Below are positions 24,720 through 45,816 of a stretch of 64,000 nucleotides of DNA, piece after piece. Every line of letters starts with the position of its first letter. Within the stretch, counting starts at the first letter, position 1. The notes beneath the pieces were generated by a model. That model was not told the DNA's origin. It worked only from the letters and a program-made list of their open reading frames with translations, and did no database searches. Position numbers and translations under genes: made by a program. Origin of the DNA: Candidatus Marinacidobacterales bacterium (GTDB taxonomy: Bacteria; Acidobacteriota; Vicinamibacteria; Marinacidobacterales; SMYC01); the NCBI GenBank assembly GCA_965224085.1, contig CBDCYI010000005.1:1152001-1216000 (forward strand), written 5' to 3'.

Positions 24720-24891
24720 AGGGCGGTCTCCTCGTCACGAATGTGGACGCTATGGGTCGACAGCATATTTCGACCAGCACCGAAAATCAACGCCCGGCAG
24801 GAACCCTCCGCCGCAGGAAAAAGCCATTGCATCAACGTTAGGCTTGCTAGAATGTGTCGTTCTCAATGAACAAAAGGGACAAAGGAGGAGC

Positions 24892-25581
24892 ATGGCAAGC
24901 TTGCAAGAACGTCAAAACGCGCATCACAACGTTCTACGCCATTTCGTCGAAAAGGGCCACGCGCCACTCTACACAAAATTGGCGGAAACACTCAGCGTCG
25001 CCCCCGATACCGCGAGGCGGCTTCTGCGCGAGACCACGGTCGAAAGCCCTTTCTCGTTCGCTTGGCTCACGCCGGACACCGACTTCGTAGGCGCATGGGC
25101 ACCTTTTTCCAACCTTCCGAGCCATAACGCTATCAGCGTCGAGGGGGTCCAGAAATGGTATGGCCAGTGAGGGATCGAAGCGCTGGCCGTGAGCCAGCTC
25201 TTCCCCGGTAAAGAGGTCACGATCGACACCCGCTGCTTGGAATCAGGCGACCCCATTCGGATCCGCATGCGCGACTCGGACGTGCTGGAGGTCACTCCCG
25301 AGACCGCCGTCGCCCACGCCAATGTCATGATGGATAAATGGGGCCAGCCCTCGTGGGCGTTCACGTGAGCTCGCATGAATCTCTTCCGGTCGGAAGAGAG
25401 CGTGCGCGCGTGGGCGGATTTCGACCCCCAGACGGACAAAGCCATCAAACCCGTCCGCGAGTGGGCGGGGATGGTGACGGGAGCGCGTGTGTTTCAAAAG
25501 CGGCTCGAGAACGACTTCGTCGAGAAGAGCGAAGAATACGCCACCGAAGCCCTGGGAGCACTCGGCAACGCCTTGAGCTGA
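24892..25581 (+). CDS. MerB-like (alkylmercury lyase fold) selenoprotein with two in-frame UGA codons
   Basis: GGAGG RBS; 229 aa on read-through of TGA at 25168 (KWYGQUGIEAL) and 25366 (AFTUARMNLFRS); RCLESGDPI Cys between them; SECIS-like hairpin after each UGA. Confidence 0.85.
25171..25206 (+). promoter_or_regulatory. bacterial SECIS-like hairpin 1
   Basis: ggg..gaag.gctggc-CGTGA-gccagc.cttc.ccc; loop begins 17 nt after UGA with G at loop position 2. Confidence 0.7.
25369..25406 (+). promoter_or_regulatory. bacterial SECIS-like hairpin 2
   Basis: cgcatg..tctcttcc-GGTC-ggaagaga..cgtgcg; loop begins 19 nt after UGA. Confidence 0.75.
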
Positions 25582-25646
25582 CGAAAGCGCCGCGATGACG
25601 CTCTTCGCCTATATCTTCGGTTGGGGTGCTCGATCGGCACAGACAG

Positions 25647-28600
25647 CTAGCGCCGCCCGAGTAGCTGTTCTACGGTTAGCAACCTGCCGTTGACGATCAC
25701 GACCTCCGTCGTCCTCAAGTTCTTGATGTCGTCGGTCGGATCACCCGCGAGAAGCACGAGGTCGGCGATTTTGCCCTCTTCCACCGTACCCAACTCGTCG
25801 TCAGCGCCCAAAGCCTCGGCGGCCCGTCCGGTCGCGCTCCGTATCGCTTCGATCGGACCGAGCCCCGCCTCAGAAAGCTGCTCGATCTCGAGGAGCAGGC
25901 TGAACCCGTAAGGAATGAGGGGCGAGTCGGTGCCGACGATGATCCGCGCGCCGCGCTCGCCGAGAGCGTCGACAGTGCTAAAAATTGGCGCCATGATGGA
26001 AAAGGATGCTTGCACGTCACCCGGAGGGGAGGCGGCCAGGAAACGGTTTTTGGACCACGGAGGGAACAGTACGACGAATCGCTCATCTTCTAAAAGATTA
26101 GGCTCGCGCGCGCGTGCGAGGCTAAAGCCGCCATAGATTAGAACCGTCGGTGTGTAGTAAACGCCCGAGCGCGCCACAATCTCGATAACGTCGTCATAGC
26201 TCCGTCTCAGAGCGGTGAGCTTGGGCGAAAAGCCGCGCCTCGACGTCCCAGCGACATGCTCGATGCCGTCGACACCATAGGCCACGGCCGGGTAGAGCTC
26301 ATGCGAAGTCACGTAGAATCCTTGACGGTGCGCTTCCTCGATCACGAGCTTCTGCAGAGGGTCGGGCAAACGGACATAGGTTTTGATCAAATCGTATTGA
26401 AGATCGAAAGCCCGCTGCATTTCTTGCGCGAGCTCCTCGACGTCACCGATGGCGTGGGCACCCGTGTAGTAGATGCGGTCGCCGTCGATCGTACCCCCCG
26501 TGAAAAAAACCCGCGGTCCGACGCGTCGGTTGGACAGGATGGACTCCCGTTCCTCGAGCACCCGATAAGGGGAGTCAGCGGGCGTGCGCATCGACGTGAT
26601 GCCGTAAGAGAGCCAAACTTTGCCATGGCGCGATCCCCAAGCGGGAAGGCTCAAATGCGTGTGCATTTCGATAAGACCGGGAATGAGCGTCCGGCCGTTC
26701 CCCTCGACGGCCCGCAAATCCTCGCTGACGATCCGCCCAGTGGGGCCGATGCTCTCGATCCGATTCCCGCCGATGAGCACGTCCTGGTGCTCACGGGGAG
26801 GCGCTCCAGTTCCATCGATGATGGTGACGTCGCGCAGCAATAGTTGGCCACGCGCGGCAGGAATCTCATATTGCAGATCGAGCTCGATGCGCTCGGGCCG
26901 ACCTCCATCGAGACCGACACGCTTCAGCCCGGTCGGCGTAACGAAGAGAATCCTTTGGCTGTCAGAAAACCAACTCGGAAAGTCGACCGCCTCCCCCGCG
27001 ATTTGGCGCGGAGCGCCGCTCGGCGTGCCATCGGCGGACACCGGCAGGACCCACAACCCGCCATCCATCGCGAAAGCGAGCAACCTGCCGTCCGGGCTCC
27101 ACACCGGTCCGTCGGCGTCGCGAGCTCCGGTACTCCGATCGATCTCGTCGAGAAGACGCGACGCGCGTGTTCGCGTGTTCACGACGAGGATGCGGTTGTA
27201 GCCTTCGCGAAAGCGGGTTGATAGCGGGACGTGCACGCTCAGCGCAACGTGGATGCTATCGCTCGACCAGGTCGGCTGGCTCACGCCTCGGCGCGCCTCG
27301 GTCAGCACTTCGTTTGTGCCGGACTCGACCGACAGCACGTGCAGCCGCGCATGTTCGTCCACATAGGCGATGTGAGTTCCGTCGGGCGACCACGCGGGAG
27401 CAAGCTCCGCGCCCACATCCGTCGTGAGGCGTCGGCCGCCGTCTGAGAGCGGGCTATCGACATCTTTGACCCACAGATCCATCGTGCCGCCGCGATCGGA
27501 GCTGTAGACGATCGAGCGTGAATCGGGCGACCAGAATGGATCGCTGTCGAGGTACTCGTCGCGAGTGAGTGCTATAGGCACCCCACCCGAAGGAGACACG
27601 GTCCAGAGGTCTCCCAAAGCCGCGAACGCGATCTTCGAGCCGTCCCACGCGAGGACGGGGCGCACGAGGCCTCGAACCAGAGCGGTCGCGCCATCACGGA
27701 TCTCGACTTTCCGTCTTTCGTAGGCGGGGCGGTCGAGCGTCACCGGAACCTCGAAAGGGACCGCGCTTGGCGCGCTCCCCACAGCGGCGAGATCCTGCCG
27801 CCACAACTGGCCCGCCGCGGTGTAAACGAGCGCCGAGGCACTCACCCATTCCGCGCGAAACGGGAATACGTCCTCCAGGCCATCGACATCCTCCACGCTA
27901 CCTACGCCGTCGCCGCTAGTGAGCACGAGCACGAGGCGGCTCGCGACCGGAGCGTCGCCCATAGCATCGGCGCTCGCGGAGCCGATGTCGAGCACACGCA
28001 ACGCAATGCGGGTGCCATCCGGGCTATAGGATGGAGAGGCAATCGGCTGCTCGAAGACGAGGAGCAGAACCGGCGGCAGGGCAGGCTTCTCCGGGCTCAG
28101 GCCGAGCTCGTACAGTGCCATCCCGCCCTCCGAACGCTCCGAAACGAAAACGAGCGCGTCCCCGTTAGGCGACCACGCGGGCATATAATCGCTCGCTCCG
28201 TCCGTCGTCAGCTGGGTCAGCTCGCGGGTCTCGAGCTCGAGAATCCAAATGTCATAGTTTCCCGCGCGGTCCGACGAGAAAGCCACCCGGGTGCCGTCCG
28301 GAGAGAAGACAGGTTCGCGATCGTCGAAGCGACTCGCCGTGAGAGCCGTGAGGTTGGCGCCATCTACCCCCGCCGTATCGATCGTCCAGATGTCCCACGT
28401 CCCGTTGCGGAAGGACTGGAAGACGAGTCGCATCCCGTCGCTCGAGAAATGAGGCAGGCGATCATCACCGAGGCCGTCCGTCATCGCCGTGGCCGGTCCG
28501 CCCTCGGCGGGAAGACGCCAAAGCGTTCCCTGAAGGTCAAGGACGAAGCTGCCGTCCGCGGGAGAGAGCGCGGCCGCAAAGTTGGTCCCTTCGCGCAAAA

Positions 28601-28838: not shown

Positions 28839-31058
28839 ATGGCTCGACAACTCGTCTTTATAATGGCGCTCGCGATCGTCGCCGCCGATTGCTCCCGTGC
28901 TCAAGACCGCCCACAAGGAACTAACCGGCTCTATCACGAAACGAGCCCCTACCTTCAGCTCCACGCGCAAAACCCCGTGGACTGGTATCCCTGGGGCGAA
29001 GAAGCCATCGAGCTCGCCCGGGAGCTCGATCGGCCCATCTTTCTCTCCGTCGGCTATACCACCTGCTACTGGTGTCATCGCATGGAGGAGGACGTTTTCG
29101 AGAACGAAGAGATCGCGGCCCTGATGAACGCGCACTTCATTAACATCAAAGTGGACCGCGAAGAAAGGCCGGACCTCGACGAAATCTACATGACCGCAAC
29201 GCAGCTGATCACCCGGCGCGGAGGCTGGCCGAACTCGCTCTTCCTCACGCCCGAGCTCGAGCCCTTCTTTGCGGGTACTTATTTCCCACCCGAAGACCGC
29301 GGGCAAACGCTGGGGTTTCCAACTATCCTCAACAGAGTCCACGATTTGTGGACGAACGATCGCGAGCGGCTCGAAACGAGCGCGAAACGCATCGCCGGCG
29401 CGATGGAGGGCATGATCGCCTCCCGCGACGCACCGTCGGCCGATGTACCGGCGGCCGACGGCGTCGCACTCGCCGTGGACTCTCTAAAGCAGAGCTTCGA
29501 CGAAGAGTGGGGGGGCTTTGGCCCTGCGCCAAAATTTCCCTCTCCCGCGAACTTGTTTCTTTTGCACGCGCGCGCCCTCGAGGGAGACGGCGATGCCCGT
29601 CGCATCCTCGTCGCTACGCTTCGCCACATGAGCCAGGGCGCCCTATACGACCATGTCGGAGGCGGCTTCCACCGCTACGCGACCGACCGCATGTGGCGTG
29701 TGCCTCATTTCGAGAAGATGCTCTACGACAACGCGTTCCTCGCGGAGATCTTGATCGACGCCGCGCGGCTGACCGCGGACGAGGAGCTCGCCCGCTTCGC
29801 CCGCGGAACGCTCGATTTCATCCTCAAGCGCTTGACGAACGATGTCGGCGGCTTTCGATCCGCGATCGATGCCCAGACCGACGGCCATGAAGGCGCTTAC
29901 TACGTCTGGAGCCGTGAAGAGCTCGAGACCGTGTTGAGCGCGGACGAGCTCGCGCTTCTCGGGCCGATCTTTGGCTTCGAAGGAGAGCCGAATTTCGAAG
30001 GGACGCTCTATACCGTTTATTTGACGGCACCCATTCCGGAGCATGCCGCGCGTCTCGATATCTCCCGTGAGACCCTCCTGGAGCGCATGGCGCCCGCGGT
30101 CGAAAAACTCCGGCGCGCGCGACAAGAAAGAGAGTTCCCTCTCGTCGACGACAAGGTCCTCGCGGATTGGAACGGCATGATGGTAGGGGCGATGGCGAAA
30201 GGCGGCACGTTCTTCGCGGAGCCGCGCTACCTGAAGGCCGCGGAAAAAGCCGCCGCATTCTTGCTCGATGAGCTCGAAAGCGACGAGGGCCTACTCCACC
30301 ACGCGTGGCGCAACGGTGAGAGCAAAGTCGATGCCTTTCTCGATGACTATGCGTTCCTGATGCGCGGCCTCGTAACGCTCTATCGAGAAAGCGAAAACGC
30401 GCGATGGCTCGAGGCATCGGTTAAGCTCGCCGAGGAGCTCGAATTAAGGCTGCGCGATCCCGACGGCGGTTATTTTCAAACCACCGAGAATCCGCTCAAT
30501 CTGTTCCAATCGAAAGGCGCCATGGACGGGGCCATCCCATCCGGAAACGGCACCGCCGTGCAAGCCCTTCTCGATCTCGGTGAGCTGACAGGAAAGGCCA
30601 AGTATACGGAGCGCGCCGAGGCCGCGCTTCGCGCTTTTTCAGCGGAATATTCGAAATACCCGTCCGCAACCAAGACGCTCGCTTTATCCGTCGCGCGCTA
30701 CCACCGCGCGGACGATCCCGCCTCGCTCGCGCACACGTTGGTTACGGCACGTCTCGAAAGGACGGGCGACAAGTTCGAAGTGCATCTCCAGATCCGCGAG
30801 GGCTGGCACGTGAACGCCAACCCCGCATCCTCGCCTTACTTGATCCCCACGGAAGTCCGTGGGGACGTGAGCAACGTCGTCTATCCCGATGGCGAGCATC
30901 TCGAGCTCTCCTTCACCGACGACGCTATCGCGGTGTATAGCGGCGCGGTCAAGCTGAGCGGCGAGTCATCCGGCAACAAGGTCGTCCTCGTGTACCAGGC
31001 TTGTGACGACACGCGATGCCTCTCGCCGGTCGAGAAGACTATGGAGGCCCTGCCGTGA
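28839..31058 (+). CDS. thioredoxin-domain YyaL/SSP411 (DUF255) protein with C-terminal DsbD-N-like domain
   Basis: [49 protein letters not shown]; [16 protein letters not shown]. Confidence 0.9.
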
Positions 31059-45741: not shown

Positions 45742-45816
45742 TGGTGGGCGGTACAGGATTTGAACCTGTGACCACCTGGGTGTAAACCAGGTGCTCTCCC
45801 GCTGAGCTAACCGCCC
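45742..45816 (-). tRNA. tRNA-Val(TAC)
   Basis: GGGCGGTTAGCTCAGCGGGAGAGCACCTGGTTTACACCCAGGTGGTCACAGGTTCAAATCCTGTACCGCCCACCA; cloverleaf, TAC anticodon, encoded CCA. Confidence 0.97.

Follow-up and report, generated by a model that had tools for sequence, protein, structure and literature searches.

In a 64,000 bp stretch of the genome of a Candidatus Marinacidobacterales bacterium (GenBank assembly GCA_965224085.1, contig CBDCYI010000005.1, positions 1,152,001 to 1,216,000; hereafter the window), we found a gene of the MerB family that runs through two in-frame UGA codons. Judging from the sequence and its relatives, both codons are very probably read as selenocysteine (Sec) in one intact gene, each with its own bacterial-type selenocysteine insertion sequence (SECIS) hairpin. 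The coding sequence (CDS), as followed by translation, runs from 24892 to 25581 on the + strand and comprises 229 codons and a terminal TGA. UGA1 is codon 93 (25168-25170, + strand) and UGA2 is codon 159 (25366-25368, + strand). ATG 24892, both UGAs and the terminal TGA (25579-25581, + strand) share one frame according to the list of open reading frames (ORFs) and the translation. The original prediction, which described two independent SECIS-like hairpins in this CDS, had taken them as an argument for recoding rather than nonsense mutations. That argument is now supported: the hairpins are conserved at TGA and absent at Cys codons, and the Sec machinery of the genome is complete.

The read-through product matched the Pfam family MerB (PF03243) with an E value of 1.2e-22 and 80.6 bits, against a cut-off of 27. 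Its best sequence match among solved structures was MerB2 (5c17, E 1.1e-7, phmmer). The phmmer alignments to MerB (1s6l) and 5c17 placed UGA1 and UGA2 on the two catalytic cysteines of MerB; with 1s6l, U93 fell on Cys96, E96 on Asp99 and U159 on Cys159. Both UGA columns contained invariantly Cys or Sec; in the alignment of 43 members, just two other columns were invariant as well. The AlphaFold2 model, built from 43 family sequences, had a mean predicted local distance difference test score (pLDDT) of 95.9 and a predicted template modelling score (pTM) of 0.90. The top 11 fold matches of this model in the PDB were all MerB or MerB2. According to the model, the product would be one 229-residue protein with a MerB fold. 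By analogy, a MerB-like protein with Sec93, Glu96 and Sec159 would most likely bind a soft metal and cleave a metal-carbon bond. The protein stayed below the cut-offs of the models for MerB proper (NF009710, 33.8 bits versus 193; NF033555, 31.3 bits versus 200) and of that for SaoL (NF040728, 32.3 bits versus 140, in residues 70-145 alone), and no model in NCBIfam release 20.0 claims it.

A Shine-Dalgarno-like sequence, AAGGAGGA, could be read from the letters at 24882-24889 (+ strand), 3-10 nt upstream of ATG 24892. The terminal TGA is a true stop without a hairpin behind it, and in the orthologues L026 and L028 the same end codon is TAA or TAG. Public gene calls break precisely at both TGAs and list 'hypothetical proteins' of 92, 59 and 68 residues. 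These calls would be correct if three small proteins were made, of 92 amino acids from ATG 24892, 59 from GTG 25189 and 68 from ATG 25375; start-codon ORFs are present at those places, and gene callers predict them. We give this explanation next to no credence. No Shine-Dalgarno motif was seen upstream of the internal candidate starts GTG 25189 and ATG 25375, whereas the one upstream of 24892 is strong. In intact members the pieces always occur in one frame and in one order, joined by TGA and never by TAA or TAG, and jointly they form one MerB fold.

Both hairpins were found letter for letter where the original prediction had put them. Hairpin 1 (25171-25206, + strand), obtained by folding and in agreement with RNAalifold, has an inner stem of GCUGGC (25182-25187) and GCCAGC (25193-25198) around the loop CGUGA (25188-25192). 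Its outer stem is formed by GAAG (25177-25180) and CUUC (25200-25203), and in the window genome GGG (25171-25173) pairs additionally with CCC (25204-25206). Hairpin 2 (25372-25406, + strand), also obtained by folding, encodes the motif L-F-R-S-E. Its upper stem consists of UCUCUUCC (25380-25387) and GGAAGAGA (25392-25399) with the loop GGUC (25388-25391), its lower stem of CGCAUG (25372-25377) and CGUGCG (25401-25406). The loops start 17 nt downstream of UGA1 and 19 nt downstream of UGA2. Each hairpin lies inside the CDS and begins 3-6 nt 3' of its own UGA. Counted from the U of UGA, the GU of the loop is at nt 22-23 in hairpin 1 and at nt 24-25 in hairpin 2. With RNAfold, both structures were the minimum-energy fold of the 60 nt behind the respective UGA (-20.5 and -25.3 kcal/mol). 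Hairpin 1 has a C/U 1x1 internal loop, and hairpin 2 an unpaired AA on the 5' side. The hairpins have no sequence in common, and calling them independent was therefore apt.

For comparison between sequences, a hairpin rule was used that demands a stem of at least 5 or 6 bp and a GU at loop position 1 or 2, 21-23 nt from the U of UGA. UGA1 and UGA2 pass this rule, at 6 and 8 bp, and the terminal TGA fails it. By this rule, hairpins were kept in TGA-bearing homologues, in 43 of 44 distinct site-1 and 74 of 77 distinct site-2 TGA sequences, and were absent at Cys codons (0/31 sequences at site 1 and 0/2 at site 2). The pattern scored was 6 bp with an NGUNN loop for hairpin 1 and CUUCC-GGUC-GGAAG for hairpin 2. 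The three failures among site-2 TGA sequences were one GGGC loop, one G-G mismatch and one apparent chance match of the search expression. Hairpin 2 is common to a wider group of single-Sec relatives, and hairpin 1 is confined to double-Sec members.

RNAalifold picked the same 6-bp apical hairpins from 41 distinct sequences at site 1 and 71 at site 2. The 10-pair helix of hairpin 1 (columns 10-20 and 26-36) was 97.6% paired across the 41 sequences. All 13 pairs together were 91.7% paired, versus 28.5-61.4% when the 3' partners were shifted by 1-3 columns. The loop occurred as CGUGA, CGUGC, GGUCA or GGUCC, with G22 and U23 invariant (41/41). Pair 18-28 was GU in 34 sequences, GC in 5 and AU in 2, and pair 17-29 was UG in 36 and UA in 5; these changes come with a replacement of Ser-Gln by Arg-Trp in the protein, and the pairing stays. 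In hairpin 2, each of the 6 pairs of the core UCUUCC-GGUC-GGAAGA was formed in 70-71 of the 71 distinct sequences, in both groups and in at least 5 phyla. The changes seen in these 71 sequences were five from U-A to U-G, one swap from C-G to G-C and one G-G mismatch; the loop was GGUC in 70, the exception being GGGC. Other members share the additional upper pairs and the lower stem of the window only in part: pair 10-38 is formed in 67/71, pairs 11-37 and 12-36 in 57/71 each, pair 7-41 in 10/71 and pair 8-40 in 19/71. In the covariation check that had been proposed for the TGA-bearing homologues, pairing was conserved, compensatory change was weak and formal covariation was absent at site 1. 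With covariation this weak, the case for the stems rests on conservation and on their association with TGA, rather than on compensatory change.

Codon usage was also compared. Synonymous codon entropy was evaluated at conserved residues in 36 group-A genes, with the gene-wide entropy of the same residue as the expected value. Of all 5-codon windows, codons 164-168 had the lowest ratio of observed to expected entropy (0.04) and codons 97-101 the second-lowest (0.11); elsewhere the mean was 0.61 (sd 0.24). Arg166 was CGG and Ser167 was TCG in 36/36 of these genes. Arg166 was present in 26/26 rows with a site-2 TGA versus 3/17 Cys rows, in which nine other residues occur at this position, and Glu168 in 26/26 versus 6/17. 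Codon entropy, the association with TGA and the Arg166/Glu168 pattern point to a constraint at both hairpins that acts on the RNA, and hairpin 2 seems to determine some of the residues in the motif encoded there.

Another explanation would be that Sec is inserted, with the hairpins kept for the sake of protein sequence or codon usage, or with only one of them acting as a recoding signal. The stems are nearly without compensatory change, they overlap with the conserved peptide motifs LAV(S/R)(Q/W)L and LFRSE, and the outer and lower stems are only partly kept in other members, as in the case of pairs 7-41 and 8-40 of hairpin 2. All this would fit such an explanation, which we nevertheless consider unlikely: four- and six-fold degenerate third positions are frozen in the apical stems while their neighbours vary freely, Arg166 and Glu168 are invariant with TGA at site 2 but not with Cys there, and neither the motifs nor the hairpins occur at Cys codons. 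Furthermore, bacterial SelB depends on a hairpin immediately behind the UGA, and the two described here were the only conserved candidates at these places.

The genome (6.87 Mb in 12 contigs) contains all that is needed for Sec insertion. A tRNA-Sec was detected at 74 bits (anticodon tca by ARAGORN), and selB, selA and selD scored 365, 550 and 280 bits, so that all four components were above the cut-offs. The selD match (C5:1545162-1546073, - strand) lies within a stop-free open frame of 774 residues, compared to 311 positions in the SelD model, and this frame may encode a fusion protein. TGA closes 1242 of 2538 long frames and is the commonest ordinary stop, and the tRNA-Sec is the sole tRNA with anticodon tca among 57. 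An alternative genetic code was excluded on these two grounds. Two other genes, for the alpha subunit of formate dehydrogenase (1339 bits; C5:2096968-2099964, - strand) and for an FdhA-like molybdopterin enzyme (C4:1100993-1102861, + strand), each contain one in-frame TGA followed by a hairpin. These fdhA-type hairpins have the loops GUU and GGUCU, with the GU at nt 23-24 from the U of UGA. The genomic features of a selenoprotein gene are present here, with tRNA-Sec, SelA, SelB and SelD in the genome and Cys in homologues at the UGA columns. When open frames of the genome were screened for a TGA with a hairpin of 6 bp or more behind it, 59 places were listed, among them both sites of the MerB-like gene, fdhA and the FdhA-like gene; the other places look like chance open frames in G + C-rich DNA. 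Two long open frames (C5:2081362-2084997 and C11:1313373-1316141, both - strand) each run across a TGA, behind which stand similar letters (TGAAGCYTCTTCTGGCG…) and a hairpin of 6-8 bp. They are probably adjacent paralogous gene pairs and not selenoproteins.

The UGAs could also be read through with insertion of an ordinary residue, by a near-cognate tRNA (for Trp or Cys) or by way of a recoding signal independent of SelB. One public gene call, the 229-residue family member P0154, does have W at both Sec positions, but this is most likely an artefact of gene calling with a table in which TGA encodes Trp. Homologues have Cys, and never Trp, in both columns. In addition, the genome has the full Sec machinery and further selenoprotein genes whose hairpins are similar, the spacing of the hairpins and the GU in the loop are as in bacterial SECIS elements, and a second UGA-reading tRNA is lacking. 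We therefore hold an ordinary residue to be quite improbable and Sec to be by far the likelier one.

Among 61 related genomes, 25 contained a match to the MerB-like protein. Full-length orthologues with TGA at the same two codons were present in 4 of the 61 (G000, G003, G005 and G011), with 68-87% identity. A genome of the same genus (G002; loci L027 and L049) contains a decayed orthologue with TAA at site 1, in which site 2 and hairpin 2 are intact and the N-terminal 54 codons are displaced by about 1.3 kb, as by an insertion. In a genome of the same family (G012; locus L029) the gene is truncated: the 12 hairpin-1 codons are gone right behind a TGA, and what lies upstream is unrelated, while TGA2 and hairpin 2 are kept along with the rest of the C-terminal two thirds. 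In the other matching genomes, including 15 of the 16 of one genus, site 1 is Cys (YYANCAWD) and site 2 is TGA (FTU...FFRSED). A scan with one genome per species yielded 22 loci, 20 of which were Cys/TGA, from metagenome-assembled genomes (MAGs) labelled Acidobacteriota, Gemmatimonadota, Chloroflexota, Actinomycetes and Calditrichota; the remaining 2 were Cys/Cys and came from archaeal MAGs. A 401-genome sample of the phylum added two further double-TGA genomes, one of them in another class.

Metagenomes were searched with the degenerate DNA pattern W-Y-G-Q-(TGN)-G-I-(D/E). This gave 65 loci; ten of these (6 TGY and 4 TGA) were unrelated chance matches and 55 were true members. All 55 had TGA at site 1, a count that is not an unbiased Sec:Cys ratio, as the pattern is blind to the Cys forms WF(G/A)QCG(V/F/L)E. 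Site 2 was TGA in 50 of the 50 members reaching it; of the five without a usable site 2, three stop at contig ends and two lose the frame first. The metagenome members were 43-48% identical to the protein of the window and conserved past each TGA. One of the metagenome contigs (L136) has a third in-frame TGA (…VAV-TGA-FRD…) about 33 codons past site 1, which could be a sequencing error, a sign of a decaying copy or a third Sec.

An exhaustive protein search identified 305 relatives, many of them ending at query residue 92 or 157-158; others start around residue 95-101 or at 162. Ends of this kind are what gene calls interrupted at both TGAs leave behind. A word-indexed protein search returned one relative, a fragment ending at site 1. 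Full-length Cys/Cys forms exist as well (P0003, with 41% identity, P0004 and P0007), and P0005 and P0010 have Cys at site 1 and a stop at site 2.

Taken as a pseudogene, the gene would carry two nonsense mutations with incidental hairpins. The three short ORFs of the public gene callers are what would be expected of such a gene, and decayed copies do occur in the relatives G002 and G012. Yet in every intact member recovered both TGAs are at the same codons, and the protein past each TGA is conserved both in related genomes and in metagenome members. Moreover, all 229 residues fold with high confidence, and the TGAs fall on two catalytic Cys positions. This makes a pseudogene very improbable compared to a gene with two recoded UGAs. 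Both TGAs were without variant letters in contigs from runs of three studies that cover the gene, even in those of diverged strains with 21-26 differences elsewhere; one of these runs may itself be the source of the window. In other contigs, from 3 of 4 runs, positions 25365-25398 (UGA2 and the core of hairpin 2) gave a match of 33-34 nt with 3 differences, beyond which the sequences were unlike. These short matches most likely come from further members of the family present in those samples.

In a maximum-likelihood tree of 46 rows, a single clade of 28 rows (support 100/99) contained the double-Sec forms intermixed with Cys/Sec and Cys/Cys ones. On this tree, which was rooted at the midpoint and from which no direction of change was drawn, at least 4 changes are required for the double-Sec label. 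The intermixing of the forms and the number of changes indicate that Sec and Cys have been exchanged repeatedly.

Several observations weigh against two SECIS-directed Sec residues in a MerB-like enzyme. The dinucleotide-shuffle z values of the folds are modest in this G + C-rich DNA (-1.2 for hairpin 1 and -1.8 for hairpin 2); with 8 upstream nt added, hairpin 2 reaches -3.9. The bulged U on the 5' arm is absent in both folds; it is specific to E. coli-type SelB and not general. No SECIS match was found in Rfam, either in 24800-25700 at E values up to 10 or in the whole window at gathering thresholds (the weak matches to symR, twister-P5 and sot2652, at E 3.6-9, were dismissed as chance). The hairpin rule, which is met at 0.64% (5 bp) or 0.23% (6 bp) of the 178,547 TGA trinucleotides of the genome, was composed post hoc, with the hairpins already seen. 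At site 1, 0 of 13 pairs showed two-sided changes relative to the commonest pair, and in the majority of trials shuffled columns equalled the real alignment. The core of hairpin 2 is near-invariant, with one compensated sequence, and the RNAalifold covariation terms are only -0.26 and -0.08 kcal/mol for sites 1 and 2. Many of the metagenome sequences are close kin, with a median protein identity of 80%, and were collected with a pattern blind to the Cys forms. The Cys control for hairpin 2 consists of only 2 archaeal sequences, and the closest Cys/Cys forms (P0003, P0004 and P0007) were left out of it. As for function, the enzymatic role is a prediction from homology and the MerB alignment, a mer operon was not found beside the gene, and no MerA above cut-off was found in the genome.

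Despite these points, we consider recoding at both UGAs the best explanation and propose the following mechanism, in which SelB binding, Sec insertion, enzymatic activity and substrate are all things we infer. With a UGA in the ribosomal A site, the C-terminal domain of SelB would bind the apical stem-loop through the GU of the loop. SelB, carrying GTP and Sec-tRNA(Sec), would then deliver Sec in place of termination by release factor 2. This recoding would occur twice per mRNA, 198 nt apart, by means of hairpins that are unrelated in sequence. The product would have Sec93, Glu96 and Sec159 where MerB has Cys96, Asp99 and Cys159, and would thereby form a diselenolate metal-binding site with a carboxylate (Glu) as proton donor.

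The neighbours of the gene encode an M14 peptidase, a PD40-amidohydrolase protein and, two genes downstream (28839-31058, + strand), a protein of 739 residues with a DUF255 thioredoxin domain and a DsbD_N-like C-terminus; at other loci, nothing connected this last protein with the MerB-like gene. Across 15 family loci, in which 34 flanking ORFs were scanned, the neighbourhoods were unrelated save for synteny of close kin, and no mer or SAO genes were present. Between 24600 and 25800, a sigma-70-like promoter was not found on either strand, nor was a terminator on the + strand; two terminator-like matches on the minus strand were within shuffle expectation. A look-up of RNA runs returned none that contain the gene. 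The only Rfam match of the window is one tRNA gene (45745-45816, - strand, 73.9 bits).

A more far-reaching reading, which we would put at less than even odds, is that of an undescribed class of selenoenzymes. These would be MerB-fold diselenolate lyases (Sec-Glu-Sec) of bacteria from several phyla that live in soil, wetland and sediment; they would work outside mer operons and in the absence of MerA, and their substrate may be methylmercury or another organometal or organometalloid. Sec would have given way to Cys, and Cys to Sec, several times within the clade, and hairpin 2 would be old and constrained enough to have fixed Arg166 and Glu168. The review tables of PMC9312934 and PMC13188914, in the parts available, list one MerB-like selenoprotein with one Sec, and 'MerB' or 'alkylmercury' were not found in the main text of PMC2398784, PMC5029168 and PMC13326102. 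As far as searched, in the searchable literature and supplements aside, the double-Sec variant of the MerB family is widespread, mis-annotated and undescribed in print.

The family is common in environmental DNA. Annotated as 'hypothetical proteins' of 92, 59 and 68 residues, it would be missed by surveys of mercury or organometal genes and of selenoproteomes. It would offer a natural test case of what Sec adds to the cleavage of metal-carbon bonds. The gene also combines two unrelated SECIS-type hairpins in a short sequence, each with Sec and Cys relatives for comparison, and hairpin 2 would clearly exemplify how an RNA signal can limit the protein sequence encoded at the same place.

When compared to known SECIS elements, the hairpins resemble those of E. 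coli fdhF and of the fdhA-type genes of the same genome in being located in the CDS 3' of the UGA, with a loop GU about 22-25 nt from the U. The spacing of this GU in E. coli and in the fdhA-type genes (23-24) is bracketed by that of the two hairpins described here (22-23 and 24-25), and the FdhA-like gene has the loop letters GGUC in common with hairpin 2. In E. coli fdhF the loop contains G23 and U24, and a bulged U17 is needed by E. coli SelB, according to the part of PMC8659212 that was available. The elements described here differ in that they have no bulged U, that the stems are unrelated and that two of them occur in one 690-nt gene. The single-Sec sister group (YYANCAWD ... FTU-x3-(L/F)FRSE) belongs to the same family and has an identical hairpin 2 core, but has Cys at site 1, no hairpin 1 and Asp instead of Glu after the first site.

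The closest described selenoprotein, and the only MerB-like one that literature searches turned up, is SaoL ('selenocysteine-assisted organometallic lyase', NF040728), a PF03243 protein. In the available part of its description (Haft & Gwadz, bioRxiv 10.1101/2022.07.06.499078), SaoL has a single Sec in a CU dipeptide, is restricted to anaerobes and serves as the marker of an SAO locus of nine genes, and Sec is given as unknown in characterised mercury-resistance families. The protein of the window is similar to SaoL as a probable MerB-family selenoprotein with Sec in the region of the second catalytic Cys that is cut at UGA in databases. It differs from SaoL by having two Sec residues (Q-U-G and T-U-A), no CU and no SAO or transporter neighbours. 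With MerB (1s6l, 3f0o and 3f2f) and MerB2 (5c17) it shares the fold (Foldseek E 1.6e-9 to 6.9e-6, TM-score 0.42-0.67), the two metal-binding positions that align, and an acidic residue three places past the first. However, Sec-Glu-Sec would take the place of Cys-Asp-Cys in MerB and of Cys-Ser-Cys in MerB2, the identity is 14-18%, and merA, merR, merT and merP do not adjoin the gene. With Sec as both catalytic ligands, the metal affinity, the pKa and the product release of the enzyme are predicted to be very different from those of MerB.

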